A stretch of 64,000 nt of DNA from Escherichia coli (GTDB lineage: Bacteria; Pseudomonadota; Gammaproteobacteria; Enterobacterales; Enterobacteriaceae): NCBI RefSeq assembly GCF_044324875.1, contig NZ_CP172185.1; one strand, 5' to 3'. The notes under the pieces are model-generated. The model was not told the DNA's origin and did no database searches. It saw nothing but the letters and a program-made list of their open reading frames with translations. Every line of letters begins with the position of its first letter. Within the stretch, counting starts at the first letter, position 1. Shown in pieces: positions 1,614-62,417 of the stretch. Made by a program: the position numbers and the translations under genes.

Positions 1614-1888
1614 AACGATGTTGCAACATTATTCAGCGTCATGGAAAAAAGGACTGACTGCACTCTGCTTACTGGCTGTTGCCGGGCTTAGCGGCTGCGA
1701 TCAAAAAGAGAATGCGGCGGCAAAAGTGGAATACGACGAACTTTCGAACAGCCAACCGCTGCGTGTCGATGCTAATAACCATACGGTAACCATGCTGGTG
1801 CAAATTAATGGTCGTTTCCTCACCGACGACACTCGTCACGGTATTGTGAACCGCCCCGGGTTTCCTGGAGAGTGTTTTATCTGTGAAC

Positions 1889-2779
1889 TCAGGCTGCCAG
1901 ATCATCGTTTCCGATGGAAGCATAATAAGCTTTTTCTGCTTCTGCCGGTGGGATATGGCCCAGCCTTTCCAGCAATCGTCGATTGTTATACCAGTCCACC
2001 CACGTGAGTGTGGCCAGCTCCACTTCTGTCCGGTTTTTCCAGCTCTTACGGTGTATTACCTCCGCTTTGTAAAGGCCATTGATGCTCTCCGCCATCGCGT
2101 TGTCATACGAGTCACCAGTACTTCCTGTTGATGCCAGTAATCCGGCTTCCTTAAGCCGCTGTGTGTAGGCCAGCGATACATACTGAGAACCTTTATCACT
2201 GTGATGGACTGTGCCGGACGGTCGACGGGCCCATAACGCCTGCTCCAGAGCATCCAGCACGAATGTCGTTTCCATAGACGATGAGACCCGCCACCCCACG
2301 ATGTATCCGGCAAACACATCAATGATGAACGCCACATAGACGACCCCCTGCCATGTGCTGACGTAAGTAAAATCAGCCACCCACAACTGGTCAGGACGTT
2401 CTGCCACAAACTGACGGTTTACGCGGTCGCCTGCGGCAACGGCTTTCCGGCTGACGGTAGTGCGGACCTTTTTACCCCGGAGAACACCGGCAAGTCCCAT
2501 AACCGCCATGAGGCGCGCCACTGTACATCTGGCTACCCTGATTCCTTCCCGTAACAACTGACGCCAGACTTTACGCACACCGTATACCTGATGATTCCCA
2601 TCGTATACGCGCAGTATCTCTTTCTTCAGCCAGTCATCGCGCTGCGCACGGGCACTGCGTTTATCCGGATGATGTCGCTGTTGCTGACAGTGGTAATACG
2701 TTGACGGGGCAATATGTAGTTCACTGCATACCGGTCCGACCCCGTACAGCTTACGCAGCTTATCCAGCAGTGGCATCAC
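1889..2779 (-). CDS. IS629 OrfB (DDE transposase catalytic subunit)
   Basis: 296 aa rve-domain ORF with IS3-family DDE motifs. Confidence 0.9.
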
Positions 2780-3102
2780 TTTTTCCAGAGGCGGTCGAAC
2801 TCCGCCTTCGCAAAATAAGCGGAAGCCTGGCGAAGGATATCGTTACTGCGGCGCAGTTCACGATTTTCACGTTCCAGCTCTTTCAGACGCTGACGTTCAG
2901 CGGTGGTGAGCCCGCCATCACCGCCTCCGGTATCCCGCTCATGCTGGCGTACCCAGACACGCAGAGTCTCCGGTGTACAGCCAATCTTTGGGGCAATGGA
3001 ACAAATTGCCGCCCACTGTGAGTCATATTCGCCCTGACTTTCCAGAACCATACGAATCGCCCTCTGACGGACTTCGGGGGAAAAACGAGTATTTTTAGTC
3101 AT
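2776..3102 (-). CDS. IS629 OrfA (HTH transposase subunit)
   Basis: 108 aa [19 protein letters not shown]...; overlaps OrfB as in IS3-family programmed -1 frameshift organisation. Confidence 0.9.
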
Positions 3103-3622
3103 TCTGTTTACCTCTTTCTCAGGGAGTTTAGTCTCCAGGATTCCCGGGGCGGTTCATTGTGTTTAAAGATGGCTCCAACGGACATAAATCGCTGTTTATG
3201 GGTTATGCGACCCCGAAAGCATTTTATGAAGCCCTGAAAGAGGCAGGTGGTACACCGGGCGAAAACATGACGATGGATAATAAAGAAACGACTCATGTCA
3301 CAGGCAGCAAACTGGATATTTCGGTCAACTGGCAAGGGGCGGCAAAAGCGTATTCCTTCGATGAAGTGATTGTTGACAGTAATGGCAAGAAACTGGACAT
3401 GCGCTTTGGCGGTAATTTAACGGCAGCAGAAGAGAAGAAAACGGGCTGCCTGGTGTGTCTGGATAGCTGCCCGGTCGGCATCGTCAGCAATGCAACATAC
3501 ACTTATGGTGCGGTTGAAAAACGAGGTGAAGTTAAATTCAAAGGCAATGCCTCGGTTCTCCCGGCGGATAACACGCTGGCAACGGTTACCTTTAAAATCA
3601 CCGAATAAAGCCAGGATAAAGA

Positions 3623-5065: not shown

Positions 5066-6253
5066 ATGGCACTTACAGCCAGACAAGTCGAAACAGCCAA
5101 ACCTAAAGACAAAGATTATAAACTCTCTGATGAACGTGGTTTATATCTGCTGGTAAAAACCACGGGAGCACGCTACTGGCGCTTTAAGTACAGGATAGCA
5201 GGAAAGGAGAAAAAACTGTCCTTCGGTGTCTATCCTGACGTCTCCCTTGCAGAAGCCAGAACCAAACGCGACGATGCAAGGAAAATTATCTCCGAGGGCG
5301 GTGATCCCGGTGAAAAGAAACGAAGGGAAAAACTCTCACAGAAAATCTCTGTCACCAACACCTTCCATGCTCTCGCAATCGAATGGCATCATCATAAATC
5401 TTTATCATGGTCTGACAGTTACGCCAGAAGCGTACTGGAAGCTCTGGATAAAGACGTTTTCCCGTATCTGAGCAACCGGAGCGTTACTGATATCCTTCCA
5501 CTGGAAATGCTGGAAATACTACGTCGAATTGAAAAACGAGGCTCTCTGGAAAAACTACGCAAGGTCCGGCAATACTGCAATCAGATTTTCCGTTATGCCA
5601 TAGCCACAGGACGAGCCACTGTCAATCCAGCCTCAGAACTGAGCAGCACGCTGGCGGCACCAAAAACCGCACATTTTCCCCATCTGAGAGCGGATGAACT
5701 TCCTGTTTTTCTCCGGAAGCTCGCTGACTATCACGGCAGTCCTGTCACTCGTATGGCTACAAACCTGCTGATTCTGACCGGGCTCAGAACGATTGAATTG
5801 CGACTGGCCGAATGGTCAGAAATTGATTCTAGCAACGCACTCTGGCATATCCCTAGAGAGAGAATGAAAATGCGCCGGCCTCATATTGTTCCTCTGTCAC
5901 GCCAGGTCATTTCTGTTCTGCAGGAATTACATGGTTTTACCGGACAGTATCGCCTTATGCTACCCGGACGTTGCGATGTAAACAAACCTATGAGTGAAGG
6001 CTGCATCAATATGGTGCTCAAACGTATCGGTTACGATGGCAGGGCAACCGGTCATGGTTTTCGTCACACCATGAGTACCATTCTGCACGAACAGGGCTTT
6101 AATTCTGCCTGGATTGAAATGCAGTTAGCTCATGTGGATAAAAACTCCATCAGGGGTACCTATAATCATGCACATTATCTCGATGGTCGCCGTAAAATGA
6201 TGCAGTGGTACGCTGATTACATTGATTCTCTTATGGGAAAAACGCACAAATGA
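5066..6253 (+). CDS. Tyrosine recombinase, P4-type island integrase
   Basis: ORF 5036..6253; likely start MALTARQVETAKPKDKDYKL at 5066 with AGGAG 8 nt upstream; P4-integrase N-terminal signature and C-terminal catalytic region (HGFRHT...Y). Confidence 0.85.
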   Translation: MALTARQVETAKPKDKDYKLSDERGLYLLVKTTGARYWRFKYRIAGKEKKLSFGVYPDVSLAEARTKRDDARKIISEGGDPGEKKRREKLSQKISVTNTFHALAIEWHHHKSLSWSDSYARSVLEALDKDVFPYLSNRSVTDILPLEMLEILRRIEKRGSLEKLRKVRQYCNQIFRYAIATGRATVNPASELSSTLAAPKTAHFPHLRADELPVFLRKLADYHGSPVTRMATNLLILTGLRTIELRLAEWSEIDSSNALWHIPRERMKMRRPHIVPLSRQVISVLQELHGFTGQYRLMLPGRCDVNKPMSEGCINMVLKRIGYDGRATGHGFRHTMSTILHEQGFNSAWIEMQLAHVDKNSIRGTYNHAHYLDGRRKMMQWYADYIDSLMGKTHK

Positions 6254-10267: not shown

Positions 10268-10657
10268 TTATCTGAATTTTCGGTGGCCTTCCAGTTTTAT
10301 ATTATTCATTTTATCCAGAGCATCACGTAGTGACTCTATATTCCCCGACTCAACCTTCTCTTTTGCAAGATTGATTTCATTTTGTAGTTTCTTCAACTCA
10401 TTCTTATAACTTTCCACTGCGACTTTATCGTTGCTGTTTATTTTTTCAGGAAGAGTATTCATGGAAGCATTTACAGCTTTGTCCATCATATCAAGAGCAT
10501 TTAATAGAGATTTTTTATCACCAGAGGATTGTAGAGTGCTCATATTTCTTGCAAGGCTCTGCATATTTTTATCCAGTCCGGAAGCCAAAGATATATGACT
10601 GGTAGATAAACACATTACAAGTATAGAACTCACAATAAAGAATTTTTGTTTCTTCAT
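10268..10657 (-). CDS. Cytochrome b562-family periplasmic protein (divergent)
   Basis: 129 aa; signal peptide; four-helix-bundle-like sequence with Met near the mature N-terminus (DKNMQSL) and C-terminal ...EGHRKFR resembling the CybC ...YHQKYR heme-ligand region; AT-rich surroundings. Confidence 0.55.
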   Translation of the reverse strand: MKKQKFFIVSSILVMCLSTSHISLASGLDKNMQSLARNMSTLQSSGDKKSLLNALDMMDKAVNASMNTLPEKINSNDKVAVESYKNELKKLQNEINLAKEKVESGNIESLRDALDKMNNIKLEGHRKFR

Positions 10658-10954: not shown

Positions 10955-11560
10955 TCAGGCAATACGCACGCTCTCAGGCATACCTACTTTCGTGATTTTA
11001 TTCAGCGCTAGCGCCATGACCATACCCTCTGCAACCTGACCATCGTAGTCACGCAGCGTCAGTGAACCTCCGAACAACTGTTTTACCCGGTACATCGCTG
11101 TTTCCGCTATCGAACGACGGTTATAATCTGTTGTCCATTTACACCGGGCATTACTTCCGGTCAGCCGCTGATTAGCCACTGCACGGTTACGGTCTTCGTA
11201 TTCACCGGGCTAGTAACCCGCACCTTTTCGGGAAGGGGTAAGCGCGCTGATTTTCTTACGCCTCAGTTCATCGTGACAGAGTCGGGGGTCGTAAGCCCCG
11301 TCTACCGCTGCAGCCATGATTTTTCTGTGAGTCTGTTGGAGAAGCCCCGGGAAGGCTTCTGAGTCCGTGACGTTGTTCAGCGACAGGTCTGCACAGACAA
11401 TTTCATGTGTGTTGCCATCAACAGACAGATGCGACGCCCCTCTTTGCCGTGCTTTTTGGCTTTCCTTTCGCCTTCCCCAAAGACTTTTAGCCCGTTGGAA
11501 TCAATCACGAGGTGTATGATTTCACCCCGGGTGGGGATTTATGTATAAGAAACAGCGTAT
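10955..11560 (-). pseudogene. DDE transposase remnant (IS5/IS4-like), several frameshifts and an in-frame TAG
   Basis: Frames read ...LHLAVDSNTHEIVCADLSLNN... and ...RDYDGQVAEGMVMALALNKITKVGMPESVRIA; GAGY*PGEY amber at about 11210. Confidence 0.45.
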
Positions 11561-11689
11561 TCGTGAGGGGTGAGCCATGAATAAAATCCCTTTTGAAGTA
11601 TTAATCCACTCTGAAAATGCATTAATCTGCGCAAAGGAAATGGACGCGTTATTAATTAAGTTAATTGATATTCCGGAAAGTGGCGATAA

Positions 11690-11989
11690 AACATATTCGA
11701 TGACGGACAGGCGACAATGTGGTTATCTGTGCTGGCGTTTGGCAGACAGGCCGAAGCACTGGCCAGACACCAGAAAGGCGAACTGGTAAGCGTGGCAGGT
11801 AACATGCAGGTCAGCCAGTGGACAGGGCAGAACGGGAAAACGCGGCAGGGACGGCAGGTTATCGCAGACAGCGTAATCAGTACTCAAACGGTGCGGCCAG
11901 GAGGAAGCAGACGCGAAACCACAGGTACACAGGGTAATCAGCCACCAACGGGAGGCGACGCCACTTACGGAGATGATATACCCTTATGA
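11690..11989 (+). pseudogene. Single-stranded DNA-binding protein, C-terminal fragment only
   Basis: ...MWLSVLAFGRQAEALARHQKGELVSVAGNMQVSQWTGQNGKTRQG...DDIPL parallels the SSB C-terminal half including the acidic DDIPF-like tail; no N-terminal OB-fold part. Confidence 0.5.
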
Positions 11990-12006
11990 ATTAAGCGGGG
12001 CGCAAC

Positions 12007-12327
12007 ATGAACAACAGCACACTGAAGAGCCGGACAATAAGCGACGCGACAGCGGAAGAACTCGAGAGCAGGGGACTGTGGCGACGTGCTGCCAGAAGGT
12101 GGCAGGATGTGATGATTACTCTTGAGAAAGACAGTCACAGACAGCTTGCAGTAATGAGAGCAAGGGAATGTATCAGGAAGGCAAAACGCCCGATACCTGA
12201 AAGCCGTATTGATATTCATACAGTCAGAAAGGCCGCAGACAGGACAATACAAAAAATGGGGCTACCGTCGCTTACTGATGAAATATGGCGCGATTACCCT
12301 GATAGCGTTAACGATGACGGTTATTAA
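12007..12327 (+). CDS. PerC-family transcriptional activator
   Basis: 106 aa; motif AEELESRGLWRRAARRWQDVM typical of PerC/Pch proteins; later KMGLP motif. Confidence 0.55.
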   Translation: MNNSTLKSRTISDATAEELESRGLWRRAARRWQDVMITLEKDSHRQLAVMRARECIRKAKRPIPESRIDIHTVRKAADRTIQKMGLPSLTDEIWRDYPDSVNDDGY

Positions 12328-12610
12328 CTGGCGGGGGAAACACGATACCAGCGGGCGTGACTCGGGAGAATATATACCGCTGGTGGAACATTACCAGCCC
12401 TGATGGCTGGTGGCGTGCGTTACGACCTGAAAGACCATCCATGCGGGAAGGTGACACAGGAGCACCTGGCGAACGCGGGGAAGCGACTGGATGAGATTAA
12501 GAAAAAACAGCAGGAGCGCAGAAAAAGTAACCGTCTCATTAAAACGTCTTTCGCCTCCCTTTCCTGTTTCCTATGCTAATGTCCATTTTCGCAGTAAAAG
12601 GACATTTACG

Positions 12611-12859
12611 ATGAATGCACGAAAGGCGGTACTGGCAGATAATCCGGAATTGATCCTGCGTTTGCTACAACTGAAATTTGACGAGACACTGTCGTACCCG
12701 CGCATTTCTGCACAGACCGGTGTCAGCAAAACCGCTATTTTTTCTCTGGTGAGGCGATTTCATCAGGTATTCACTGACGGGCATCTTTCTGGTGAATATT
12801 CCTGCGTGCAACTGACCGGGCTCTTTTCCCGGGGCGATAATATTCAGCCCCGACAGTGA
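12611..12859 (+). pseudogene. IS21-family IstA N-terminal HTH fragment
   Basis: MNARKAVLADNPELILRLLQLKFDETLSYPRISAQTGVSKTAIFSLVRRF resembles the N-terminus of the IstA at 16595..18130. Confidence 0.35.
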
Positions 12860-13090
12860 CTCAGCCTGTAAAAACAGAGAAAACCCGTCGGAACCGATTT
12901 TCACCAGAGTAAAAATGGAGACTTGTTCAGCAAACTCTTTTACCCGGAGCCTGTGTGGCCCAGATTGCACGAGAGTCTGGCATCAATGATAATGTTATTT
13001 TCAAATGGCTCAGACTCTGGCAAAACGAAGGGCGTGTTTCGCGGCGTCTTCCGGTAACAACCACTTCTGACGCAGGCGTTGAATTATTAC
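12860..13090 (+). pseudogene. Transposase HTH-subunit fragment (IS66/IS3-type)
   Basis: Frame reads ...FSPE*KWRLVQQTLLPGACVAQIARESGINDNVIFKWLR...; stop-interrupted. Confidence 0.3.
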
Positions 13091-13660
13091 CTATGGAGAT
13101 AACGCCGGATGAGCAGAAAGATCCGATGATTCCCCTACCGCCAGCTTTTCGCCTGCGCCGGTATACGTTTCTTTATCTTTGCCCTGCATCACCCACAGGC
13201 TGGCTCCGCCGATAATGGCGTTTTGTGGTGCATCTTTCGCGTCAGCGTCGTAAGGCATCATGCCTACGCCGTAGTTGAATTTGGCGTACTCGCGAATGTT
13301 GGCAAGAGAACCGGAAGAGGCGGTGGTCATCGCGCAATCACCTCTATAGAACTTCTCGGTGGATTCATCCTTACGCCCGACGTAGATGAAGTCGCCCTTC
13401 TTGTTCATCTCCTCGAGCATGACGATGTGTTTCACCTGCTCCGGCTTGTTGAACTCCAGCACCGCGTCCGTGGCGTCAAAACCGTTGTTTTTGCTGGCAA
13501 ACGGCAGACCGTTCCTGGCGCTAAAGTTTTCCAGTTGTATCCACCTCTTTGCCCATTTCCCCTTCCATAGAGTTCCAAAACGGAATGGTCGTCACTGCCT
13601 GTGCATTGCCCATTAACGCCAGTCCGAGCACCAGTGATGAAGCTGTATAATGTAACGGTT
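13091..13660 (-). pseudogene. ugpB: ugpB (sn-glycerol-3-phosphate ABC transporter binding protein) remnant with internal deletion and 3' truncation
   Basis: Signal peptide [30 protein letters not shown]... at the 5' end and ...[16 protein letters not shown]...[11 protein letters not shown]...[18 protein letters not shown] in ORF 13091..13462; about 160 codons missing between them; frames differ. Confidence 0.8.
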
Positions 13661-15552: not shown

Positions 15553-15822
15553 AAAAACACAGGCTAACCGCGCCTGCGTTTTTAATGACGGATGAAACAG
15601 AATCAGGTGCCGATTATGCCGCCGTCGGCTTTTACGATAACGACAGTTGAGGAGCGCGGACGACCAGCCTTATCGCCGTCAGGCCAGCTTGATACTGCCG
15701 TCGGATGCTGCGGATCGCTAAGCTGCGTATTCCGCTCTATTCGATCACGGATTGGCATCGAAGTCCGATCAGCGATTCGCATCCATTCGATCAACCGGGA
15801 ACTTAACTTTTTCTACCGCTTT

Positions 15823-16578
15823 TTAACGCGTTTTTTCGCTGCTTTCCACTACCGGGGGATTTTTCCTCAGTGACTCTCCCTGAAGGACCACTCGGTGTGA
15901 GTTATGTACCAGTCTGTCCAGGATGGCATCTGCTGTTGTTGGGTTCTCCATCAGACCATGCCATTTATCTACCGGGAACTGGCTTACCACTATCGTGCTG
16001 CTTTGTCCGTAACGATCCTCTATGAGCTCCAGAAGGTCATTACACTGGGCGTTACTTAACTGTTCCAGCCCCAGATCGTCCAGGATTAGAACCTGTATTT
16101 TTTGCAACTGTTTCAGATATTTCAGCCAGCTGCCATCAACACGTCCCTGAGCCAGTTGTTCCAGTAATCGCCCGGTTCTACAGTACCGGACGCTGTGTTT
16201 CTGTCGACATGCCTGTTCGCCCAGCGCATTGGCTATCCAGCTCTTGCCACATCCTGTCGGACCGGTTATCAGCAGGTTTTTCCTGTGGGTTATGTAGTGG
16301 CCGTTCAGCAGTTCTCTCATCTGTTCAGCCCGCAGACCTCTTGAGGCCGGATAGCGCAGCCCTTCCGGTGTTGCCTGGTATTTCAGGCCGGCATTTTTTC
16401 TCAACCGTGCCACACGGCTGTTTTCCCTGCTCAGAAGCTCGTCATCAACCAGCAGCGTCAGCCTTTCCTCGAACGACAGTTCGTCGTAGGTCTGAGGCGT
16501 TTCCCGCTGCCGTATCAGGCTCCCGGCCATCGCCGGGAGTTTCAGTTGGGTCAGTTTGTTTAACAGGTTATCACTCAT
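15823..16578 (-). CDS. IstB-like ATPase of the IS21-family element
   Basis: Walker A GPTGCGKS; likely start MSDNLLNKL at 16578 with AAGGAA RBS. Confidence 0.8.
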   Translation of the reverse strand: MSDNLLNKLTQLKLPAMAGSLIRQRETPQTYDELSFEERLTLLVDDELLSRENSRVARLRKNAGLKYQATPEGLRYPASRGLRAEQMRELLNGHYITHRKNLLITGPTGCGKSWIANALGEQACRQKHSVRYCRTGRLLEQLAQGRVDGSWLKYLKQLQKIQVLILDDLGLEQLSNAQCNDLLELIEDRYGQSSTIVVSQFPVDKWHGLMENPTTADAILDRLVHNSHRVVLQGESLRKNPPVVESSEKTR

Positions 16579-16594
16579 ACTGTTGTTCCTTCTG

Positions 16595-18130
16595 TCAGTG
16601 GTAGTAGCCCGGACCACGCAGGTTTTCATGCTCTGAAGCATATGCCGGATGTTGTTCGCCCTGGCGGGATAATGGAAGCTCCAGGTTCTCCCGATGGTGA
16701 CGCAGCAGATTGTCGATAAAGCGTCTGTCAGGGGCGTTATAGTGCAGGGCAACGTAACAGGCCTTTTCCAGCCGTTCCGGGCCGTATTTTTTCTGAAGTG
16801 CCAGCAGCCCCAGAACTGCACGATAAGCCAGTTCCGGATGGGGTTTTGCCTTCAGCATGGATTCAACCACCCGGCCTGTGGACGGGCCCGTACGTTTTCC
16901 CTGCTCGATCAGGCGTTCCGGTGTCCATGTCCCGTGCTGCCGGTGGCGCTCTGGCATGTGAAGCGGATTGGTTGTGTGTTTATATTCATGTGTGCTGCGC
17001 GGATGTTGCGCCACACACTGCCCCTTGTGCCAGAGCTGTACCACCGACTGCCCCGCCTTCAGTGACAGACGCTGACCGACCAGTTCGTGTGGAACGGAGT
17101 ACCAGTGACGGGCATATTCAACGTGGTAGTCAGGGCCAACCTTCACAGCTTTGTATTCCGTGTATTCATAAGGTGCCAGAGGCAGCGGAGAGAGTGCTGG
17201 CGCATCCAGTATGCGGAAGCGTTCTGCACGGGTTTGATTGCCGTACCCCTTCATTGGCCGGTTATTCATGTCTGTCAGTAACTCCCTAAGGCGCGCATTC
17301 AGCGCCCTGAGCGTGTGGAAGGTTTCATTACGGATGCGGGCAAGAAGCCATCGTTCAACGATGAGGACGCCGTTTTCTGCTTTTGGTTTATCTTTAGGTT
17401 TGCGTGGTCGGGCCGGGATGATAACCGTGCCATAGTGCTCAGCCAGTGCCTGATAACTGTCGTTGATGACAGGCTCATATCGATCGGCCTTTTTCACTGC
17501 GCTTCTGAGGTTATCGGGGATGAGCAGCTTCGGTACGCCGCCCAGGAAGGTCAGGCAACGGCTGTGGGCATTTAACCATGACATCATGTCCTGACCTTCG
17601 CACGCTTCAACGTAGGTATAGTTGGACGCCCCCATTACGGCCACGAAGATTGCCACGCGGCGTATCTCACCGGTGTCCGGATTAATAACAGGAACCGTAG
17701 GACCACAGAAGTCGATAAAAAGCTTTTCGCCGGCACGATGCTCCTGGCGCATGGAGAGACGTCGCGTTTTTTTCCACTCCCGGTAGCAACGGCAGAAGTG
17801 CGAGTATCCCATCGCTTTGTTACCCGCCTGTGCCTTGTATTCCATCCACAACAGTTGCCGCGTCACACCTGGTTTTCTCATTTCCGTATCGAAGTACAAC
17901 ATGTCAGGCATTACAAGCTCTGATGCAAAGGTGTCTTTGGGCGGAAAAATGAGTTTCTCCAGCGTGTCATGGGATATATCAGCAGGTAATGGCCATGACA
18001 GAGAAGAGGCTTTGAAGCGGGCAAGAACCTCAAAAACGGTTGAGGCGCTGATGTGTAACGTCAGTCCGATACAACGGTTAGTCAGCTTCTTGTCGAACTT
18101 GAGCTGAAGGATCTTAAAACAGGTTTCCAT
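16595..18130 (-). CDS. IstA-like DDE transposase of the IS21-family element
   Basis: 548 aa ORF; likely start METCFKILQ at 18130 with AGGAG RBS; N-terminal HTH and rve core. Confidence 0.8.
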   Translation of the reverse strand: METCFKILQLKFDKKLTNRCIGLTLHISASTVFEVLARFKASSLSWPLPADISHDTLEKLIFPPKDTFASELVMPDMLYFDTEMRKPGVTRQLLWMEYKAQAGNKAMGYSHFCRCYREWKKTRRLSMRQEHRAGEKLFIDFCGPTVPVINPDTGEIRRVAIFVAVMGASNYTYVEACEGQDMMSWLNAHSRCLTFLGGVPKLLIPDNLRSAVKKADRYEPVINDSYQALAEHYGTVIIPARPRKPKDKPKAENGVLIVERWLLARIRNETFHTLRALNARLRELLTDMNNRPMKGYGNQTRAERFRILDAPALSPLPLAPYEYTEYKAVKVGPDYHVEYARHWYSVPHELVGQRLSLKAGQSVVQLWHKGQCVAQHPRSTHEYKHTTNPLHMPERHRQHGTWTPERLIEQGKRTGPSTGRVVESMLKAKPHPELAYRAVLGLLALQKKYGPERLEKACYVALHYNAPDRRFIDNLLRHHRENLELPLSRQGEQHPAYASEHENLRGPGYYH

Positions 18131-18241
18131 AGTGCTCCTGGATTTTCTCTTTCTGGACATTGACGTCTCCACTGGTTTAAACACGGCAATGGAGACTGTG
18201 GTGAAAAGAGTTAATTCCCGGAGTGACTGGCAGGATGCCAA

Positions 18242-18365
18242 TCAATGATCGGAAGCATGCCAAATCGTGATCGATTGTGATGCCAAACTGTGATCGGAGA
18301 TGGATGCCAAATCATGATCGATTCGAATGCCAAACTGCGATCGATTCAGATGCCATTTTGCACTA
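18242..18365. repeat. Five tandem ~23-bp direct repeats (ATGCCAAAYYRTGATCGRWKNNN), terminal repeats of the IS21-family element
   Basis: Seen directly; inverted versions lie at the other IS end. Confidence 0.6.
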
Positions 18366-20227
18366 AGCCCTTCGCTTGGCTCGCCAGGGTGCTGGATGTT
18401 AATAAACAGCGTCCGGTTATCCGGAGTGAACGCGATGCCGGTGATTTCGCAGCCGCGCGGGCCGGTCAGGAAGCGGCGGAACTCATTGGTACCGGGAATC
18501 GTCGCCACCATCTGGTTGTTGCCCATGCCTTTGTAATCTTTAATATTTATGGTTGATGACGACACGTCGGTCTGGATCCATAGCACGCCGCGGTGATCGA
18601 AGCTCAGGCCATCGGCGCTGCCGAATTCCGCACCCTTCATGCTGCCTTTGGTTTCCGGTTTGTCTGTATCGGTGCGACCGCCCATCACAAGAATATCCCA
18701 GGCAAACTGCAGCGCGGTCGGGTCACCGTTATGCTCCAGCCAGTGAATGATGTGGCCGTAAACGTTTTTGGCGCGCGGGTTGGCCGCATCCACTGGCGCT
18801 TTTCCTTCCTTACCGCGATCGCTGTTGTTGGTGAGCGTGCAGTAAACGCTGCCGGCGTGATATGGATCGACCGCAATCCACTCCGGGCGGTCCATTTTAG
18901 TGGCCCCCACGGCGTCTGCCGCCAGACGGGTTTTAATCAACAGGTCGCCCTGGTTTTCAAACCCTTTACTGGCGTCGAGCCCATTTTGTCCGAACACCAG
19001 CGGTAGCCACTCGCCTTTGCCGTCGTCGTTAAATTTCGCCACGTACAGAGTGCCTTTTTCCAGCAGGTGCATGTTGGCTTTGCGATCCTGCGGGTTGAAT
19101 TTTCCTTCCGAGACAAATTTATATATGTATTCGAATTTCTGGTCATCGCCCATATAGACCACAACGCGGTTATCCGGGGCAATTGTCACCGCTGCGCCTT
19201 CGTGTTTGATGCGACCAAGCGCGGTGTGCTTGCGCGGCACTGAATGCGGATCGTATGGATCGATTTCCACCACCCAGCCGAAGCGGTTCGGCTCGTTCGG
19301 CGTGGCGTCGACGCTGAACCTTTTATCCACTTCGTTCCAGCGGTAAGAGTCGTCGCTCCCGCTGATACCGTAACGTTTTTCCAGCGGGTTCATCTCTGCT
19401 TTTTTTACGAAAATATCGGACCAGTTCTCTTCACACGTCAGATAGGTGCCCCACGGCGTAAATCCGTTGGCACAGTTCTGCATGGTGCCGAGAATGATTT
19501 CGCCTTTCGGATCGTCAACTGTTTGCATCAGTGGGTTATGCAGCGCCGGACCGGTGATTTTCATCGGCGTGTTAACGGTGATGCGGCGTGCGAACGATGA
19601 CGGGCGCACCACTTCCCAGCCCAGGGGCACTTTTTTTACTTCAATGACCGACACGCCCATCGCGTTCTGGCCTTTAAGAGCTTTATCGGCGCTCCAGTTG
19701 GCATCGCCATCTTTAAACAGTAGACCGTTATCGATGTATTCATGGTTTATGGCAAGCAGGCCGTGATCGGAGCTGTTCCCGCCCTGCGGCAGGCTAAACC
19801 ACGCCATGCCGTCGTGGTGCATCCCGGCCTGCGCCGCCTGTTCTTCCGTGGTGTTGCTACCGTCGGTTTTAAAAACCGGCAGATTTCCGGCAATCCCGGT
19901 GGCGTCGCCCCATTTGTAGAAGGGCTTCGCGATGTATCCTTCCGGCACGATAACGGTATCTTCCGTGGAAACCGGCAGGCTGGTGAAACCGAGCGTCGTC
20001 GCTTTGCCGAGGTTACCGCTTGCTTTGGAGACCACTTTCGCCAGCGCGTTTTCCTGTTTCAGCAGAAATGGGAACGCTGCCGCGGCACCGGCGACCGTGC
20101 CTGCCTGTAACAGACGGCGGCGTGACAAATAGACTTCCGCCACCTGCGAAAACGCGCGGTTATCGCTCGGGTTACTGATTTCTTCACTATGCTCACGTTT
20201 GAATAAAGTTTTTAACGGTCTGCCCAT
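18242..20227 (-). pseudogene. PhoX-type (DUF839) Tat-signal phosphatase, C-terminus replaced by the IS21-family end
   Basis: Twin-arginine motif LSRRRLLQAG; beta-propeller phosphatase-like body; the last ~40 codons of the ORF are encoded by the IS terminal repeats. Confidence 0.55.
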
Positions 20228-20649
20228 TGCGGTTTCCTTTCAAAAAATCGATTTCAAGGGGAATCATTTTTATGCACGTGAGTCTACGGAAAGATTGTTA
20301 CGGAAATATAACAATTGTCATAAAAAACCGGCGATAAAATCATCTATGGTCGGGACGCGGTTTCAGGTATGATGTGAGGCTAGAATTCTGAACGCTCTCT
20401 TTTGTTGAGCATATATGGACGTCCCAGATGAGGCAAGTACTGGTTCGATGCGGTTTGCGACCATATATCCGGCGTCGTTAGTAGGTTCAATGACCTGCGC
20501 CATGATGTTATCCGGGCCCTGTTTCCTAATCACTACACCGGTATTTGATTACCCAGGTCAACTTCAGACTGTTACAGGGGCGGTAGCCGTTATCTCATCA
20601 GTGAATGTAAACTCAGTTAAAAATATTTTCTATAACTTACTGTTTTTCT

Positions 20650-26681: not shown

Positions 26682-28769
26682 TCAGAACTGATAGTTCAGC
26701 GACATCCAGTAATTTCTCTCAGGTATCACATAACCCGTTGTCGATGCCCCCGTCTGGAAGTAATCACCCGCATAAAGCGTACCACTGCCGGCACGATACA
26801 GACTTACGTCACTGTAATCCTTGTTAAGCACATTATTCACCGCTGCATTCAGCATCAGTGCATCCGTCACTTTCCACGACATGCCCGCATCCAGTACCGT
26901 CCAGGCTTTCAGATATTCACCTTTCTCATCATACACTTTCTTCTGTACAGCTGAGAGTGACGAATAATTCTGGGTGAAACGTGGCGTTTTCCCGCGGTAA
27001 CGGGCACCCAGCCATGATGTCACCTCTTCAGTAATCTGCCAGTTCAGTTTCGCATTCACCATATGCTCAGGGGTGTAACTCAGTGGTGCACCTTTATTAT
27101 CCCCATCCCGTTGTTCACTCTGCGTCCAGGTATAATTCAGAGACAGAGTCACATCCTCTGACAACAGAGGCAGTGTGCCGGCAAATTCCACGCCCTGAGT
27201 CCTAGCCTTTCCGCTGTTTGTGTAGCTGCGGGTATTATCATCAATGGAATAAGATACGATCTTGTTGGAGAATTCTGTCATAAAGCCCGTGATATTGGCG
27301 TTCAGACCGGCATGATTATCGTAATACACGCCCGCTTCATAACTGACACTCTCCTCCGGCTTCAGGTCCGGGTTACCGAGAAGATTCGTACGCCCCTGAC
27401 CGGACACACCGCTGATCCCCTTATGTAACTGCCCCATGCTGGGCGCCTTATATCCCGTGGTCACCCCACCTTTCAGCGTCCACGCATCAGTCACATCCCA
27501 GACCATATATGCCCGGGGACTGAAGTGTCCTCCGAACACCTCATAGCGTTCATAGCGGCTACCCGCAGTCAGTGCAAATGCATCCGTGATATACCACTCA
27601 TCCTCAACAAATGCCGACCAGCTTTTCTGACGGAAGGTTTCACCAGTACTGGCGAGAACAACCCCGTCTTTCATGGAGGAGTTCTGATACTCACCACCGA
27701 CGGTAACCTTGTGTGATTCCCCCAGAGGTGCAAACAGTAATGAGCTCAGGATAAGATTCGACTCCTTAAGCTCCCTCGGCTGGCCGGCAAGCCCCCATTT
27801 ATCACGCTGCAGTACGCTACGTACAAGCTGACGGCCTTTATTTTCCGTCTCATTCCAGTTCAGGGATGACTTCCAGGCTCCGAAGGTGAATGTATGATCA
27901 TAGCCTGCTGAAATTTTATTACGCTCATAGCGCAGGGTGCGATCATAACCGCCCGTCAGACTGCCCAGCTGGCCATCTCGGTTATCATAACGCTGCCGGG
28001 CGATATCCATATCAATCCAGAGTACATCCTTGTCCGTCGCTTTCCAGTCAAGACGACCACCTGCATTATAATTCTGTGATTCCGTGGGATAAGGGATACG
28101 CGTAGCTGAGGTGTCGCTCAGTGATGTGACCGATGAGCCCTGACGCTGCTGTGTGCTGCCACGTACCTGAAGGCTGAGTGAATCATCCACAAGGGGACCG
28201 CTGCTCCAGAAATTAAACTGGCTGCTGTTCCCCCATTTGTTACTTTCCTGCAGGTTCAGCCCGGCATTAACCGAAGAGCGCCATTTGTCTGCATTCTTTT
28301 TGGTGATGATATTCACCACGCCCCCCATGGCATCAGAGCCGTACAGAGTGGACATGGGGCCCCTGATAATCTCAATACGTTCGATGGCGGCCAGAGGTGG
28401 CATAAAACCCGTATTCATGGCAGCATAACCGTTTGGGGTTACGTCACTGCTCCCGCCCTGACGGACACCATCGATCAGTATCAGCGTATAACTGGCAGGC
28501 ATTCCGCGGATGCTGATTTCCAGCCCACCTGTTTTACCCGTACCGCTTTCAACATCCACCCCCTCTACGGATCTCAGTGCCTCCCCCAGATCATGATACT
28601 GGCTGGATCGCAAATCCTCCTGGCTGATCACTGAAACACTCGCAGCTGCACTGGTTAATTTTTTTTCATAGCCAGACGCCGTGACTACCATCACATCTTC
28701 CGCAGCCATACTGCTGACTGAAAACCCGAGACAAGGGATGGCTACTGAAGCCAGAGTGGTTACTCGCAT
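26682..28769 (-). CDS. iha: TonB-dependent outer-membrane siderophore receptor/adhesin Iha (IrgA homologue)
   Basis: 695 aa; signal peptide; TonB-box/plug then beta-barrel ending ...YWMSLNYQF; closely matches Iha as recalled. Confidence 0.8.
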   Translation of the reverse strand: MRVTTLASVAIPCLGFSVSSMAAEDVMVVTASGYEKKLTSAAASVSVISQEDLRSSQYHDLGEALRSVEGVDVESGTGKTGGLEISIRGMPASYTLILIDGVRQGGSSDVTPNGYAAMNTGFMPPLAAIERIEIIRGPMSTLYGSDAMGGVVNIITKKNADKWRSSVNAGLNLQESNKWGNSSQFNFWSSGPLVDDSLSLQVRGSTQQRQGSSVTSLSDTSATRIPYPTESQNYNAGGRLDWKATDKDVLWIDMDIARQRYDNRDGQLGSLTGGYDRTLRYERNKISAGYDHTFTFGAWKSSLNWNETENKGRQLVRSVLQRDKWGLAGQPRELKESNLILSSLLFAPLGESHKVTVGGEYQNSSMKDGVVLASTGETFRQKSWSAFVEDEWYITDAFALTAGSRYERYEVFGGHFSPRAYMVWDVTDAWTLKGGVTTGYKAPSMGQLHKGISGVSGQGRTNLLGNPDLKPEESVSYEAGVYYDNHAGLNANITGFMTEFSNKIVSYSIDDNTRSYTNSGKARTQGVEFAGTLPLLSEDVTLSLNYTWTQSEQRDGDNKGAPLSYTPEHMVNAKLNWQITEEVTSWLGARYRGKTPRFTQNYSSLSAVQKKVYDEKGEYLKAWTVLDAGMSWKVTDALMLNAAVNNVLNKDYSDVSLYRAGSGTLYAGDYFQTGASTTGYVIPERNYWMSLNYQF

Positions 28770-33129: not shown

Positions 33130-33750
33130 GTCAATGGTAAGAAGCTGGCTCCCGTCGTACGCGAACTGGGCTACCCTTCGAAAAGAAATCTGCGGCGTTG
33201 GATCCGTTCATAGGAATCAGGTGGCGGAGCAAAAGAATCCATTCGCCATAAGCCCCGTTACACAGATGAGCAAAAACAAGTTGCCGTTGAACATTATCTT
33301 AACCACGGCTGCTGCCTAGCGTTTACCAGTAGAACTCTGGGTTATCCCTGTACCGATGTGCTCGCTCGCTGGGTTAATGAACGTTACCCCGGCAGACGAC
33401 GTATATTTACCAGTAAGACCAGTCCGGTTGCGCCCTTTGAACCAGAAGTCAAACGTCAGGCTGTCATGGCATTCTGTACACGACAAATATCAGCCAGTGA
33501 AATCTCTAGGCGTATTGGTGTCAGTCGTGCGGTATTGTATAAATGGAAAGATGAAATTATCGGCAACAGTGCTTACCAGACTATGCGTAAACATAACGAA
33601 CCTTCCCTGGAGGCAGAACGCGATGCGTTGCGGGAGGAAGTCGCCCGACTGAATCAGGAAATACGCCGCCGGCAGATGGAACTGGATATTCTGAAAAAAG
33701 CGGAGAAAATCATAAAAAATCTATGGTCACCCCCGTTTTTGCTACACTGA
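33130..33750 (+). pseudogene. IS3-family (IS150-group) OrfA with in-frame TAG
   Basis: ...IRS*ESGG...ISRRIGVSRAVLYKWKDE...LDILKKAEKII; its OrfB resumes at 36352. Confidence 0.5.
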
Positions 33751-34178
33751 TTTTTGATTAATGGTGGGCTTGCTTAAATCTATCCGGCGTCTCTGTGGAC
33801 AAGGAGACCCGCGCCTCGATGAGTTCCGCACCTGATAATCCTAAAAAGACCCTCGGCTTCAGTGAGCCATTTTTTCTGTCAGGTTTTTAATCAGGTCTAT
33901 TTGCCGTTCATGTCATCAATAATCAGTCTTCGCAAAACCAGACAGGTAACTTGTATCTTATTTTTTAAAATAAGCTAATTGAGTTTTGTCAGTATCTATA
34001 TCAGGCCTGATATTCTTTGTGCAGAGCAGTGATTGCCCAGGCTATTCGGGCCAGTTTATTTGCCAGAGCGCAGGCGACAATATTTGAATGCTTATTGTCG
34101 AGTTGCTTTTGAACCCATTCAGCAACTCTGCCCTATTGAACCGCCCCGGGTTTCCTGGAGAGTGTTTTATCTGTGAAC

Positions 34179-35069
34179 TCAGGCTGCCAGATCATCGTTT
34201 CCGATGGAAGCATAATAAGATTTTTCTGCTTCTGCCGGTGGGATATGGCCCAGCCTTTCCAGCAATCGTCGATTGTTATACCAGTCCACCCACGTGAGTG
34301 TGGCCAGCTCCACTTCTGTCCGGTTTTTCCAGCTCTTACGGTGTATTACCTCCGCTTTGTAAAGGCCATTGATGCTCTCCGCCATCGCGTTGTCATACGA
34401 GTCACCAGTACTTCCTGTTGATGCCAGTAATCCGGCTTCCTTAAGCCGCTGTGTGTAGGCCAGCGATACATACTGAGAACCTTTATCACTGTGATGGACT
34501 GTGCCGGACGGTCGACGGGCCCATAACGCCTGCTCCAGAGCATCCAGCACGAATGTCGTTTCCATAGACGATGAGACCCGCCACCCCACGATGTATCCGG
34601 CAAACACATCAATGATGAACGCCACATAGACGACCCCCTCCCATGTGCTGACGTAAGTAAAATCAGCCACCCACAACTGGTCAGGACGTTCTGCCACAAA
34701 CTGACGGTTTACGCGGTCGCCTGCGGCAACGGCTTTCCGGCTGACGGTAGTGCGGACCTTTTTACCCCGGAGAACACCGGCAAGTCCCATAACCGCCATG
34801 AGGCGCGCCACTGTACATCTGGCTACCCTGATTCCTTCCCGTAACAACTGACGCCAGACTTTACGCACACCGTATACCTGATGATTCCCATCGTATACGC
34901 GCAGTATCTCTTTCTTCAGCCAGTCATCGCGCTGCGCACGGGCACTGCGTTTATCCGGATGATGTCGCTGTTGCTGACAGTGGTAATACGTTGACGGGGC
35001 AATATGTAGTTCACTGCATACCGGTCCGACCCCGTACAGCTTACGCAGCTTATCCAGCAGTGGCATCAC
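34179..35069 (-). CDS. IS629 OrfB
   Basis: Identical to copy 1 OrfB except for one residue (Q/E). Confidence 0.9.
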
Positions 35070-35392
35070 TTTTTCCAGAGGCGGTCGAACTCCGCCTTCG
35101 CAAAATAAGCGGAAGCCTGGCGAAGGATATCGTTACTGCGGCGCAGTTCACGATTTTCACGTTCCAGCTCTTTCAGACGCTGACGTTCAGCGGTGGTGAG
35201 CCCGCCATCACCGCCTCCGGTATCCCGCTCATGCTGGCGTACCCAGACACGCAGAGTCTCCGGTGTACAGCCAATCTTTGGGGCAATGGAACAAATTGCC
35301 GCCCACTGTGAGTCATATTCGCCCTGACTTTCCAGAACCATACGAATCGCCCTCTGACGGACTTCGGGGGAAAAACGAGTATTTTTAGTCAT
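35066..35392 (-). CDS. IS629 OrfA
   Basis: Identical to copy 1 OrfA except for one residue. Confidence 0.9.
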
Positions 35393-36351
35393 TCTGTTTA
35401 CCTCTTTCTCAGGGAGTTTAGTCTCCAGGATTCCCGGGGCGGTTCACTATTGATGCTCCAGCCGCATCATGAACGAGCGGGCGTACAGAACAAGTAACCG
35501 ACTCGTTTGCTGATCCCCAGCAGCATTGATTTACCACCGGTACTGTATTGTCGGGGAACAAGTCCTGTGGATGCTGCAAAATCCCTACTGCACGAAAATT
35601 GTTTACCATCACCAAGCTGGGATGATAGCAGGCTGGCCGTCATCGGCCCAACACCGGGGATTGTCATGATTCGTTGCACAGTAGCGTCAGCTTTGATTGA
35701 CTGGTTTAACTCTGATTCCAGTTCTGTTATTTGCTCAATACGATAAAGATAGTGAGCATGTAATTTCATCAGCAAGCGACTCAGATATTCAGGTATTTCG
35801 TGTTCAGCTAACGCCAGAGATAACCATTTTATTGCGGCATCCCCTGTCGGCAGTCTGATTCCAAATTCCAGCAAGAAACCGTGGATCTGGTTGTTTTTTT
35901 TCACCTTATCTCTGATGAGCGATTCTCTGACCCGATGTAATGCCCTCATTGCCTGCTGGGTTTCTGTTCTGGGCTGGACAAAACGCATTGATGGTCGTGA
36001 AGCCGCTTTGCATATGGCTTCTGCATCAATAAAATCATTCTTATTACCTTTGACAAACGGACGCACGAATTACGGAGAGATAAGTTTTTCTTCATGACCG
36101 ATGTCGCTGATACGCCGGGCCATAAAATGCGTACCAGCGCAGGCTTCCATAACAACTACTGAGGATGGACATGTTGCCAGAAACTGCATCAGCTTCGTAC
36201 GCGTAAACTTTTTACGCAAAAGCGCATTGCCAGATTTATCTTGACAATGAATATGGAAAGAATGTTTACCGAGATCGATACCAATAAGCGCAACGTTTTA
36301 CATGATGGTGCCCTCTAAAATAACCCACCCTGTCAGCGTACCGCTCACAGG

Positions 36352-37256
36352 GTGGGGGTGACCATCTCATTAGACCCGGGCATCAGTATCAGTCACCTAA
36401 ACAACAGAGAAAAAACAAATATCGCTGATGCCCTGAGACAAACATATCCCCTGACAGAATTACTGCATGTTCTGGGGCTTGCCCGTAGCAGTTATTTTTA
36501 TCACCGGGCTGCACTGAAAGCCGGTGATAAATACGCCACGATACGTACGATGCTGACAGATATAGTTAACAGTAATTACCAGTGTTATGGCTATCGTCGC
36601 CTGCATGCGATGCTCAGGCATGAGGGGGTCAGCTATCAGAAAAGGTTGTAAGCAGACTTATGGTGAAGGAACAGCTTGTCGTCAGCCGTAACCGTCGTCG
36701 CCGCTACAGCTCATATTGCGGAGAAATCGGACCGGATCCGGATAACCTTATCGCCAGAGATTTTAAGGAGGACCAACCTAATCAGAAATGGCTGACAGAT
36801 ATAACGGAGTTCCAGCTTCCTGCAGGAAAAGTCTGGCTGTCACAGGTGGTGGACTGCTTCGATGGAAAAGTTGTGAGCTGGTCTCTCAGTACACGCCCCG
36901 ACGCAGAACTGGTTAACGCTATGCTGGATAACGCTGTCAAAACGTTAAATGCTGGCGAACGACCGATGATACACAGTGGCAGAGGTGGGCATTATCGCTG
37001 GCCAGGCTGGCTGGAAAGAGTTAATGCCGCAGGTCTTATTCACTCAATGTCCCGTAAGGATGATGCCGCATGCGAAGGCTTTTTCGGCAGACTGAAAACG
37101 GAAATGTATTATGGGCGTAAATGGTCGGGCATCATGCCGGAAAAGTTCATGCAGCATGTGGATGCTTACATCAGAGGGTATAACGAGCGGCGTATAAAAT
37201 TATCGCTGGGTGAAGACAGCCCTGAAATGTACCGCCAACAATGTAGGCTGGAATAA
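36352..37256 (+). pseudogene. IS3-family (IS150-group) OrfB, frameshifted
   Basis: ORFs 36352..36651 and 36660..37256 in different frames; ...NQKWLTDITEF... DDE region. Confidence 0.6.
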
Positions 37257-37799: not shown

Positions 37800-38560
37800 T
37801 GAGTGAGTGCATTTCGTACAGTTAACCGCAAAAGGAGGGGGTACTCCATTCCATGAACTGGAAGCCCAGATACGATGCATAGAGTCACCTGATATTAAAA
37901 AGAACGAGGATCTTGAGGACGAGAACCGACGTCCAAAACAGATGCTTGCCGACCTTAGCCTAGAGAACCGGCATTGAAAGACATTATCGAAAAAAGCTTT
38001 AAAACCAGCCTGTAAGCGTGAGCTTGTTACTCATCAGATAACGACATTTGGACTCAGTGTCCATCAGGCCTGCCGGAGTCTGAACCAGAGCAGAACGGTT
38101 TCCCATTACCGTCCGGATACCACGTGGTACGACCCCGTTATTGTGGTGGTGCAGGCAGTGGACGAGCGATATCCTCGATACGGTTTTTCAAAACTTTTTC
38201 AGGTTCTGAGGCAGCAGGTTCGCGGCAAATCGCAGTTATCCGGTCATGCTGCGCATAGATAATGGTTCGGAATTTATCTCTCTAACGCTGGCTGAATGGG
38301 CTGATATACACGCAGTAAAACGGGAGTTTATCCAGCCGGGTAAGCTGACGTAGAACGCTTTTATTGGGCGTTTTAACAGGACACACCGTACAGAAATACT
38401 CGATTTTTATCTGTTCAGAACGCTGAATGAAGTTCTAGAAATTACGGAGAAATGGTTATCAGAATATAGCTATGAACGCACACATGAATCACTGAACAAT
38501 AAGACGCTGGAAGAATATCGACGACACCATTATTTGACCAAGATATAAAAATGCATGGAA
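37800..38560 (+). pseudogene. Degenerate IS3-family OrfB with several in-frame stops
   Basis: ...MLRIDNGSEFISLTLAEWADIHAVKREFIQPGKLT*NAFIGRFNRTHRTEILDFYLF... Confidence 0.5.
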
Positions 38561-55505: not shown

Positions 55506-55959
55506 CTGCGTACCGATGAGGGCTGGTTGTATCTCACAGTAGTCATCGACCTGTGGTCACGCGCCGTCATTGGCTGGTCGATGTCACCGCGAATGACAGC
55601 ACAACTGGCCTGTGATGCACGGCAAATGGCGTTGTGGCGGAGAAGACGCCCGGAAAGCGTCATTGCTCATACGGACCGTGGTGGTCAATACTGTTCAGGG
55701 GATTATCAGGCGCTGCTGAAGCGACACAACCTGCGTGGCAGTATGAGTGCGAAAGGCTACTGTTATGACAATGCCTGTGTGGAAAGCTTCTTTCATTCGC
55801 TGAAGGTGGAATGTATCCACGGGGAACGCTTTAGCAGCCGGGAAATAATGCGGGCAACGGTGTTTAATTATATCGAGTGTGATTACAATCGCTGGCGTCG
55901 TCACAGTGCCTGTGGCGGTCTCAGCCCGGAACAATTTGAAAACCATAATCTCGCTTAGG

Positions 55960-61181: not shown

Positions 61182-61270
61182 TGGGACCCCCTTTTGATTT
61201 CTTGTTTGACACTTGCAGTTGCCAGACCGCAAGGTGTTTTAACAAATCAAAAGGGGTTTTAATAACTGGC

Positions 61271-62417
61271 TCAAAGCTGAAAGCTTTCCGGCCCCCAGCC
61301 TAGCTGGGGGTTTTCTGTGCACAAAAATCCGGAAACGAGTGAGCGTTTCAGGATTCTTAAACAGACCCTGGATCGGTCAACTGCTCCTAAACTGATCGGC
61401 ATTACACCTGTCGGCTGCCGTTTTTTCAGCTCCGTGATCCATGGGCCGGGTTCTTTGGTCAGCAATGCTGCCGCCCTTGCCCCATGGATAAATAATGTCC
61501 GGTGGTAGGTATCCCCACGTTTGCTTATCCCCAGCATGCGAACCTTCCCAGCGGACCCCGTCTGCTTCGGCACCAGACAGACATAAGCGTCAAACTCACG
61601 TCCGGATTTAAATGCTGAGGCCTCGCCCATGGTGGCGACCACCGCCGTAGCGATTAACGGCCCCACACCGGGGATTTCCATTAGGCGCTTACAGTTTTCG
61701 CTCTGCCGTGCCACGCTGTTAATCTGTTTATCAAGGCCATCTATCTGCATGCCCAGCTCACTCAGTCTGTTGTACTGGTATTCAAGCACAGTGATGAGAT
61801 ACGGCGGCAGGTTCGTCTTCATTCGCTCTAGGGCTGTCGGTAGCTTTCTGTCCATCGCTGTCCGATCTTTGTGGAGGATTTCACCAAACTCGAGGAGCGT
61901 GCCAAGGGTATTAATATGCGAGGTTCTGAACTTCACCAGTTGTCTGCGCGAACGGTGCAGGACCAGAACTGACTGCTTCTCTTCCGTTTTAACAGCGATA
62001 TCTTTACTGGGCTGCTGTACCGCCATCCAGATAGCACGCGCATCCATCACATCATTTTTGTTGCCCATGACGAATGCTTTAACGAAGCGAGCTTGCAACA
62101 GCCGAACTTTGTGTCCCAGTTTTTTCCAGTTCCCTCGCCCAATGTTGGGAGCCTCCACAAGCCTCCATACCTATCAGACAGGGTTCCCGGTTGCTGAAGA
62201 ACGTCAGAAAATCCTTGCTACGTAGCTGCTTGTCCACCACTTCGCCCGTGTACTCATTGATGAAGTGAACCTGAATCAGATACTTTGCGATATCAACGCC
62301 AACCGGTGTATATTTCATTTGTGGAGTCGCCAGTCTGAGGGCGCTTTTGCATCCCGTATTGGGCACTATGATGCCGGAAATCTGAGAGGCTCCACAGCAG
62401 ACAATTTTACCCTTCAT
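61271..62417 (-). pseudogene. IS110-family transposase, frameshifted
   Basis: N-terminal ORF 62079..62417 and C-terminal ORF 61271..62158 overlap in different frames. Confidence 0.6.

Follow-up and report, generated by a model that had tools for sequence, protein, structure and literature searches.

Is an intact PerC-family reading frame that lies among broken genes a virulence regulator kept by selection, or a gene that has survived for other reasons? The question is raised by a short frame in a stretch of 64,000 nucleotides of Escherichia coli DNA (contig NZ_CP172185.1; hereafter the window), which the original prediction had described as an intact PerC/Pch-type activator of virulence regulons, retained among degraded prophage/ICE debris. 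In our judgement it is quite probable that this frame is a PchE-type gene on the remnant of a PICI, that the promoter region typical of pchE is gone, that the frame is intact through youth and chance, and that it is poorly or not transcribed. The features of the locus are compiled in Table 1.

Table 1 Features of the perC locus and its surroundings in the window.
Feature	Position	Strand	Remarks
P4-type tyrosine integrase of the host island, by ynjA	5066..6253	+	Context; 6.9 kb upstream of perC, same orientation
IS5-family transposase remnant, frameshifted and truncated	10955..11535	-	Partial match to NCBIfam transpos_IS5_2; left boundary; PGAP pseudogene in identical copies
AT-rich filler, 163 bp	11536..11698	.	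Between IS5 remnant and PICI breakpoint
PICI-derived segment 1	11699..12390	+	3' two-thirds of ssb, 17-nt spacer, perC and 63 nt downstream; 88% by blastn
5'-truncated SSB gene	11717..11989	+	Pfam SSB positions 49-101 of 104 only
Intact PerC-family ORF	12007..12327	+	ATG to TAA, 106 codons plus stop, 321 bp; PchE-type positional homologue
PICI-derived segment 2, internal piece of ProQ/FinO gene	12398..12524	+	94.5% to L002 20765-20891 by blastn
IS66-like TnpA pseudogene	12611..13215	+	Partial match to NCBIfam IS66_access_TnpA; PGAP 'frameshifted; internal stop'

The product of the frame matches the Pfam PerC profile (PF06069) with 97.4 bits (E 5.9e-28; gathering cutoff 22.6 bits) over profile positions 2-89 of 90, a similarity far beyond chance, and scores 98.8 bits against the PHROG profile phrog_994. 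All five columns that are invariant in an alignment of 68 family members are kept (R26, R27, A28, W32 and C55), as are all eight that are conserved in at least 90% of them (A16, L19, E20, G23, R31, A76, M84 and G85). The core motif G-[LF]-[WY]-R-R-A-x-x-R-W, the Cys and the C-terminal M-G are likewise present. The protein is identical in sequence to RefSeq WP_001066120.1, which PGAP names "PerC family transcriptional regulator". These findings confirm that the window contains a real and intact PerC/Pch-family gene with a full PerC domain, and in these two respects the original prediction was right. A PDB sequence search with the protein gave nothing meaningful (the best match was ribosomal protein S3, E 0.07), a word-indexed protein search returned eight close matches or fragments and no named distant relative, and a literature search on WP_001066120 found no paper. 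No RNA family was matched near the perC locus in an Rfam scan of the window. The gene and its family are already public, as is the association of PerC alleles with E. coli PICIs, which has been published (PMC6092414, PMC11773190, PMC3378721).

To compare the protein with characterised relatives, whose sequences were taken by coordinates from Sakai, pMAR2 and MP1, we determined amino acid identities and Pfam PerC scores. The allele of an intact PICI (L002) is 87% identical to the window protein (93.5 bits), followed by PchE with 50% (153 bits), the PICI allele of locus L005 with 48%, PchA with 35% (149 bits), and EPEC PerC and EcCIMP1_025 with 34% each (143 and 105 bits, respectively). These values place the window protein in a divergent branch, of which PchE is the nearest studied member. 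The alignment to PerC and PchABC that had been proposed as a check therefore gave a split result: family and core residues are shared, but the identity to the LEE activators is only 34% (PerC) and 35% (PchA), and the protein is closer to PchE. The locus, too, differs from theirs, as it is a PICI block with perC following ssb, and neither a lambdoid prophage nor a per operon.

PchE (ECs_1588) is encoded by a capsid-forming PICI of EHEC O157:H7 Sakai, where its gene directly follows ssb and precedes the capsid module. It has 90 aa, compared with 106 aa for the window protein, which has additional stretches of nine residues at the N-terminus and eight at the C-terminus. In the subclade of the window gene perC is followed by proQ/finO, whereas pchE is followed by a small hypothetical gene, and the window copy has lost the promoter region ahead of hyp-ssb that drives pchE. 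EPEC PerC (pEAF/pMAR2) shares the core motif LE..G.[WY]RRA..RW..[VI]M and the conserved Cys; however, this proven LEE1/ler activator is encoded in the plasmid-borne perABC operon, after perA-perB and together with the AraC-type PerA, whereas the window gene is chromosomal and PICI-derived. PchA, PchB and PchC of the EHEC lambdoid prophages Sp4, Sp11 and Sp14 belong to the same family and are of similar length (104 aa), but their genes lie among lysis-region and IS629 genes of these prophages (pchA in Sp4 adjoins lysis genes), not in a PICI, and their C-terminal tail is unlike that of the window protein. EcCIMP1_025 from PICI EcCIMP1 of E. coli MP1 is a PICI-encoded family member as well, yet its gene occupies another position and orientation in its island.

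The neighbours of perC are indeed degraded, as had been claimed for the SSB and transposase fragments: the SSB, ProQ, IS5 and IS66 profiles are each matched in part only, and PGAP flags the IS pieces as pseudogenes. According to PGAP, the SSB stub starts at 11693 and has 98 aa, compared with 136 aa in full-length homologues. About 40 N-terminal residues of the OB-fold are absent; full-length ssb measures 411 bp in the intact PICI loci L002 and L003 and in Sp7. The ProQ/FinO frame (12403-12579) has 58 aa instead of the 194 aa of full-length proteins and covers positions 70-108 of 109 in the Pfam ProQ profile. Segment 1 aligns to 19693-20383 of both L002 and L003. Compared to intact PICIs, 381 bp are deleted at window positions 12391-12397, the gap corresponding to L002 20384-20764. 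Within the 7-bp junction of this deletion, position 12396 is A in the window and G in all five genomes compared (L001, L010, L091-L093), and no other site between 11536 and 12600 sets the window apart from all five. On the right, the end of the IS66-like element adjoins the PICI breakpoint at about 12525, which bounds the remnant. As judged from these junctions, the neighbours were lost through IS or deletion breakpoints and not by slow erosion.

What element did the fragment come from? Two perC copies with 92% identity (WP_001066127.1) sit inside intact elements of 10-11 kb: that of strain LH50-c is flanked by tRNA-Pro/yejM and yejO, that of strain Br_112 by cspD/yljB and clpS. Each of them encodes, in this order, an integrase, a small HTH regulator, an Icd-like protein, DUF4222, a RepA helicase or primase, a hypothetical protein, SSB (136 aa), PerC and ProQ/FinO (194 aa), followed by the major capsid and decoration proteins in one element and the small terminase subunit in the other. 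Neither element contains tail or lysis genes. Such a layout from int to capsid/terS is the architecture of Gram-negative PICIs (PMC6092414). The surviving piece in the window, 826 bp in total (11699-12390 plus 12398-12524), is colinear with the hyp-ssb-perC-proQ block of these intact PICIs. Because the block lies with 88-94% identity within intact satellites, because the same layout surrounds pchE, and because perC is syntenic with ssb, we assign the fragment to a PICI; the SSB stub, perC and the ProQ stub are by colinear blastn parts of one such remnant, and the description as prophage/ICE debris was not borne out. As neither alpA, primase, ori iterons nor capsid/terS adjoin it, the 826-bp piece is, by its gene content, the remnant of a PICI and not a PICI. 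In L002, tandem repeats of the GTGGGGA(G/A) type were read from the alignment at about 19200-19330, between the RepA helicase gene and the hyp-ssb-perC operon, and these look like a PICI ori. In the Sakai region homologous to this repeat site, the promoter of the pchE operon has been mapped experimentally.

On the most probable reading, a PchE-type perC gene was carried into the island as the middle of a PICI. A breakpoint within ssb on the IS5 side, the insertion of IS66 and the internal 381-bp deletion removed all but 826 bp, and it was by chance that the whole perC ORF lay in the part that survived. Alternatively, the ssb'-perC-'proQ block might be debris of a lambdoid prophage, an ICE or a conjugative plasmid. 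Conjugative elements often carry SSB and ProQ/FinO genes, the island itself has pseudogenes of the ICE families TIGR03756 and TIGR03757 some 9-10 kb further downstream, and PerC-family genes were found on 307 plasmid and 70 phage records. However, in a plasmid megablast the ssb-perC-proQ part matched no plasmid and only the IS66 end did, with matches beginning at query position ~1018-1026 (window 12517-12525). The best protein match on a plasmid (48%) is itself a PICI by phoQ in a record filed as plasmid, and phage matches are partial and at most 40% identical, while the close DNA relatives of the block (88-94%) occur exclusively in 10-11 kb int-to-capsid/terS satellites. This origin is therefore highly improbable. 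The plasmid record in question (locus L005; CP061267.1, filed as the 171-kb plasmid pSTEC1024_3) has its PICI beside phoQ-phoP, where Sp7/OI-51 resides in the chromosome. The record is probably no true plasmid but a piece of the chromosome or an assembly error.

The PICI origin is also reflected in the gene order around perC in other satellites. A scan of IMG/VR with the 68-sequence PerC alignment yielded 309 confirmed loci. The best 80 of these (42-87% identity to the query), a set biased to close relatives and consisting mostly of viral-catalogue contigs of 6-16 kb, were kept. Of these 80, 75 include 600 bp or more of sequence upstream of perC, and tblastn with L002, L003 and Sp7 proteins identified ssb as the gene immediately preceding perC in 68 of the 75. 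A few loci lack ssb (L021, L034, L035, L047 and L063) or have proQ upstream of perC (L058 and L088). In the same set, the arrangement that recurs is int ... DUF4222 - primase or RepA helicase - hyp (phrog_1231) - ssb - perC, and perC is followed by a capsid module of the mcp, decoration and terS type in 43 loci and of the mcp, portal and terL type in 22. The hyp-ssb-perC block is nearly invariant in enterobacterial PICIs, although it occurs with two types of replicase, with various integrases and with either of two capsid modules. Examples are found in L002 (19325-20985) and L006 (9104-10045). A composite of the intact relatives reads int - alpA - ... - DUF4222 - primase or helicase - ori iterons - hyp - ssb - perC - (proQ/finO or small hyp) - capsid/terS module. 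In Sakai Sp7 (O-island 51, EcCIEDL933), the locus of pchE (PMC3378721), ECs_1586 (hyp), ECs_1587 (ssb) and ECs_1588 (pchE) are followed by a hypothetical gene and by head, protease, portal and terminase genes, and the L005 PICI has the same layout around its perC. Within the best 80 of the 309 loci, perC is hence a fixed gene at the boundary between replication and packaging modules.

We next consider whether the window copy is transcribed. In EHEC PA20, pchE is part of a polycistronic hyp-ssb-pchE mRNA, the start of which was mapped by 5'RACE and RNA-seq to 10 nt upstream of ECs1586, that is, 675-700 nt upstream of pchE (PMC7369912). In the window, the PICI DNA ahead of perC is only 308 nt long, so that the pchE-type promoter region is gone. 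In the PA20 RNA-seq data, 5' ends also clustered 110-115 nt upstream of pchE, but RACE did not confirm this second cluster (PMC7369912). The region matching this cluster is still present in the window, and by analogy an internal promoter within the retained sequence upstream of perC is conceivable. A scan of the + strand for consensus sigma-70 promoters between 10600 and 12007 gave no site. A relaxed scan gave a single weak site at the junction, TTGATA-16-TAAAAC at 11665-11692, with 9 of 12 matches and without the -7 T. A terminator-like hairpin lies at 11520-11536, and where the intact allele has a Shine-Dalgarno-like GGGGAG, the window has GGGGCG. Transcripts of perC could arise by read-through on the IS5 side or from the weak junction site, and expression of the gene appears doubtful but possible; judging by its upstream sequence, perC is probably poorly or not transcribed and a silent hitch-hiker. 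Since the SSB stub, perC and the ProQ stub together are a satellite remnant that lacks the pchE-type promoter region, the ORF should not be taken for an active virulence regulator by default.

Does its intactness then indicate selection? A query of 1.4 kb around perC was found at full length and 99.9% identity in 49 of 5,426 complete E. coli genomes, in every case on the chromosome and with a PGAP-annotated PerC gene between IS5 and IS66 pseudogenes. The perC ORF alone was found in 51 genomes, in 49 with at least 99% and in two with 92.2% identity. The carrier strains stem from poultry, human faeces, urine, ascites and a wild bird. Across the 49 genomes the fragment shows about 99.9% identity, and PGAP gives all inspected copies one and the same protein accession. 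In a base-by-base comparison of five copies, the ORF showed a single SNP (12082 C>A, synonymous at Arg26), common to three strains whose copies are 99.7% identical. The ssb and proQ stubs are still in frame, without stops and without decay by point mutation, which argues that perC is intact because the fragment is young and not because it was selected; we infer youth and chance as the reason for its intactness. Compared to the intact-PICI allele, perC has a dN/dS of 0.38 (10 synonymous and 15 nonsynonymous changes), a divergence mostly older than the truncation. The value mostly reflects history within working satellites, and indicates that, until recently at least, the protein evolved under constraint. 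The dN/dS values of the stubs are 0.25 for ssb and 1.7 (on seven changes) for proQ. For perC and the stubs alike, the counts are too small and the divergence mostly too old to tell anything about present selection. The occurrence of the module with identical junctions in 49 genomes, from chickens, humans and one wild bird, agrees with neutral evolution without proving it. Taken together, breakpoints in place of decay, stubs that are open as well, a lone synonymous SNP and the missing pchE-type promoter region do not support the claim that perC was retained. Two frameshifted PerC variants in the larger protein collection, P0005 and P0006, have several frame changes each; we set them aside as signs of decay, as they may be homopolymer assembly errors.

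What would the protein do if it were made? The best-described mechanism in the PerC family is the relief of H-NS silencing: PchA lowers the occupancy of H-NS, StpA and Hha at LEE1, and its activating effect depends wholly on that silencing (PMC4764244). PchE increases flagellar gene expression and motility, decreases curli and cell adhesion, and influences csgD, stpA, ler and flhDC (PMC7369912). The PICI-encoded PerC-like proteins of EDL933 and CFT073, as far as Porter et al. (2005) is cited in PMC11773190 and PMC6092414, had no effect on LEE1 fusions, and EcCIMP1_025 represses LEE1 in C. rodentium (PMC11773190). As published homologues variously activate, have no effect or repress, family membership does not predict virulence activation, and the repression by EcCIMP1_025 shows that a PICI allele does not have to activate LEE. 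By analogy to other family members, the window protein (about 12 kDa and all-helical), if made, would remodel nucleoprotein complexes silenced by H-NS and StpA as PchA does, and it would shift adhesin and flagellar regulons as PchE does rather than act as a dedicated LEE activator.

Against this background, the proposal of a functional virulence activator, selectively retained amid decay and switching on a LEE-like or other regulon in the strain, appears unlikely. It would be in line with the intact ORF and its full set of family-conserved residues, with the dN/dS of 0.38, with the conservation of the module in 49 genomes, and with the fact that PerC and PchA-C are proven LEE1 activators. The window protein, however, is less similar to PerC and PchA than to PchE, and PICI-encoded homologues did not activate LEE1, one of them even repressing it, so that the designation as a PerC/Pch-type virulence-regulon activator is not supported. 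The promoter region of the homologous pchE operon is deleted, the neighbours were removed by breakpoints rather than slow decay, there is no polymorphism from which selection could be deduced, and the range of carrier sources, from poultry to ascites, also speaks against such an activator. No LEE genes were seen in the examined parts of the 64-kb window.

Another reading starts from a resemblance of the protein to the ANR family. Residues 15-61 of the window protein (12049-12189) align to positions 8-54 of 54 of the NCBIfam model ANR_neg_reg (NF033650) with 15.4 bits and E 0.012, and the predicted fold, a TPR-like helical hairpin, is typical of protein-protein interaction modules. The family resemblance lies in an N-terminal three-helix core, and ANR proteins such as Aar and Rnr are likewise small, helical regulators with ties to H-NS and to virulence regulons. 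The protein might accordingly be an ANR-like anti-activator or repressor that dampens virulence or adhesin genes in trans via contacts to AraC-family proteins and H-NS, as proposed for EcCIMP1_025, which represses LEE1 and scores 31.1 bits with this model. Nevertheless, the window protein falls far short of the curated cutoff (32 bits) and scores no better than the activators PerC (18.2 bits) and PchA (13.6 bits). The model matches 63 of 68 PerC-family proteins at E <= 0.1 (best E 6e-12), and because activators score like the window protein, the match is a family-wide trait and no guide to the direction of action. ANR proteins measure 4.4-9.5 kDa (PMC10148876); the window protein with its 106 aa is about twice the size and has an additional C-terminal two-helix part with a conserved MG[IL] motif. 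As a repressor would face the same loss of the promoter, we regard this explanation, too, as improbable. In their architecture, PerC proteins resemble an ANR-type core of three helices that is extended at the C-terminus by two more, and within the ANR literature searched a link between PerC and ANR is hinted at in PMC11773190 only.

The strict ssb-perC synteny and the near-universal weak match to the ANR model are two modest leads, at the level of the family, to the role of PerC in satellites. The fixed position of perC suggests that the gene serves the life cycle of the satellite and is not accessory cargo. As perC is the last gene of the early hyp-ssb-perC operon, right before the capsid/packaging operon, a late-operon switch or an anti-H-NS role would fit. 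With little confidence, one may even speculate that PerC is a core, ANR-related regulator of satellites instead of virulence cargo, and that orphan copies with new upstream DNA are then possibly constitutive. If this were true, orphan copies, here by way of the putative junction promoter at 11665-11692, might rewire H-NS-silenced adhesin and flagellar regulons in poultry- and human-associated carriers.

The island around the PICI remnant follows ynjA and comprises a P4-type integrase, many IS fragments, the pseudogenised ICE genes TIGR03756/TIGR03757, PhoX and iha. The integrase shares 61% aa identity with its counterparts in EcCIMP1 (L009) and in the L058 element. We considered it as part of the same former PICI but rejected this, as it occurs at >=99% in 29 records versus 49 with the perC remnant, and the intervening DNA is unrelated to PICIs. 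Compared to strain LR-31, the window has an inserted IS21-family element at 15723-18363 (istA/istB ORFs 15823-18241, - strand), while strain ECCNB12-2 instead carries a copy of ISEc12 between cytochrome b562 and the IS5 remnant. As these insertions differ between the window, LR-31 and ECCNB12-2, IS activity in the island is recent. The window further holds two near-identical IS3-family copies at 1661-3156 and 33728-36605 (transposase ORFs 1889-2779 and 34179-35069) with ALIL frameshifting pseudoknots at 2705-2821 and 34995-35111; at 1661-3156, in the ydjX-ydjY region, it has about 1.35 kb of DNA in addition to that of LR-31. A group II intron reverse transcriptase/maturase of 507 aa (53893-55506; TIGR04416, 335 bits) is accompanied by an Rfam match to domains V-VI at 55420-55506; lying amid IS debris, this retroelement seems to be intact. 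Rfam matches to Hfq-binding sRNAs were obtained for isrN (38001-38143, - strand, 138 bits) and STnc490 (61191-61312, - strand, 134 bits), the latter overlapping the start of an IS110-family transposase ORF. Like perC, several other genes are intact amid pseudogenes, namely a second cytochrome b562 homologue (129 aa; 10268-10657, - strand), a PhoX-family phosphatase ORF (18242-20227, - strand), the siderophore receptor/adhesin gene iha (26682-28769, - strand) and an ORF for a Mn/Fe ABC substrate-binding protein resembling SitA (62652-63566, + strand).
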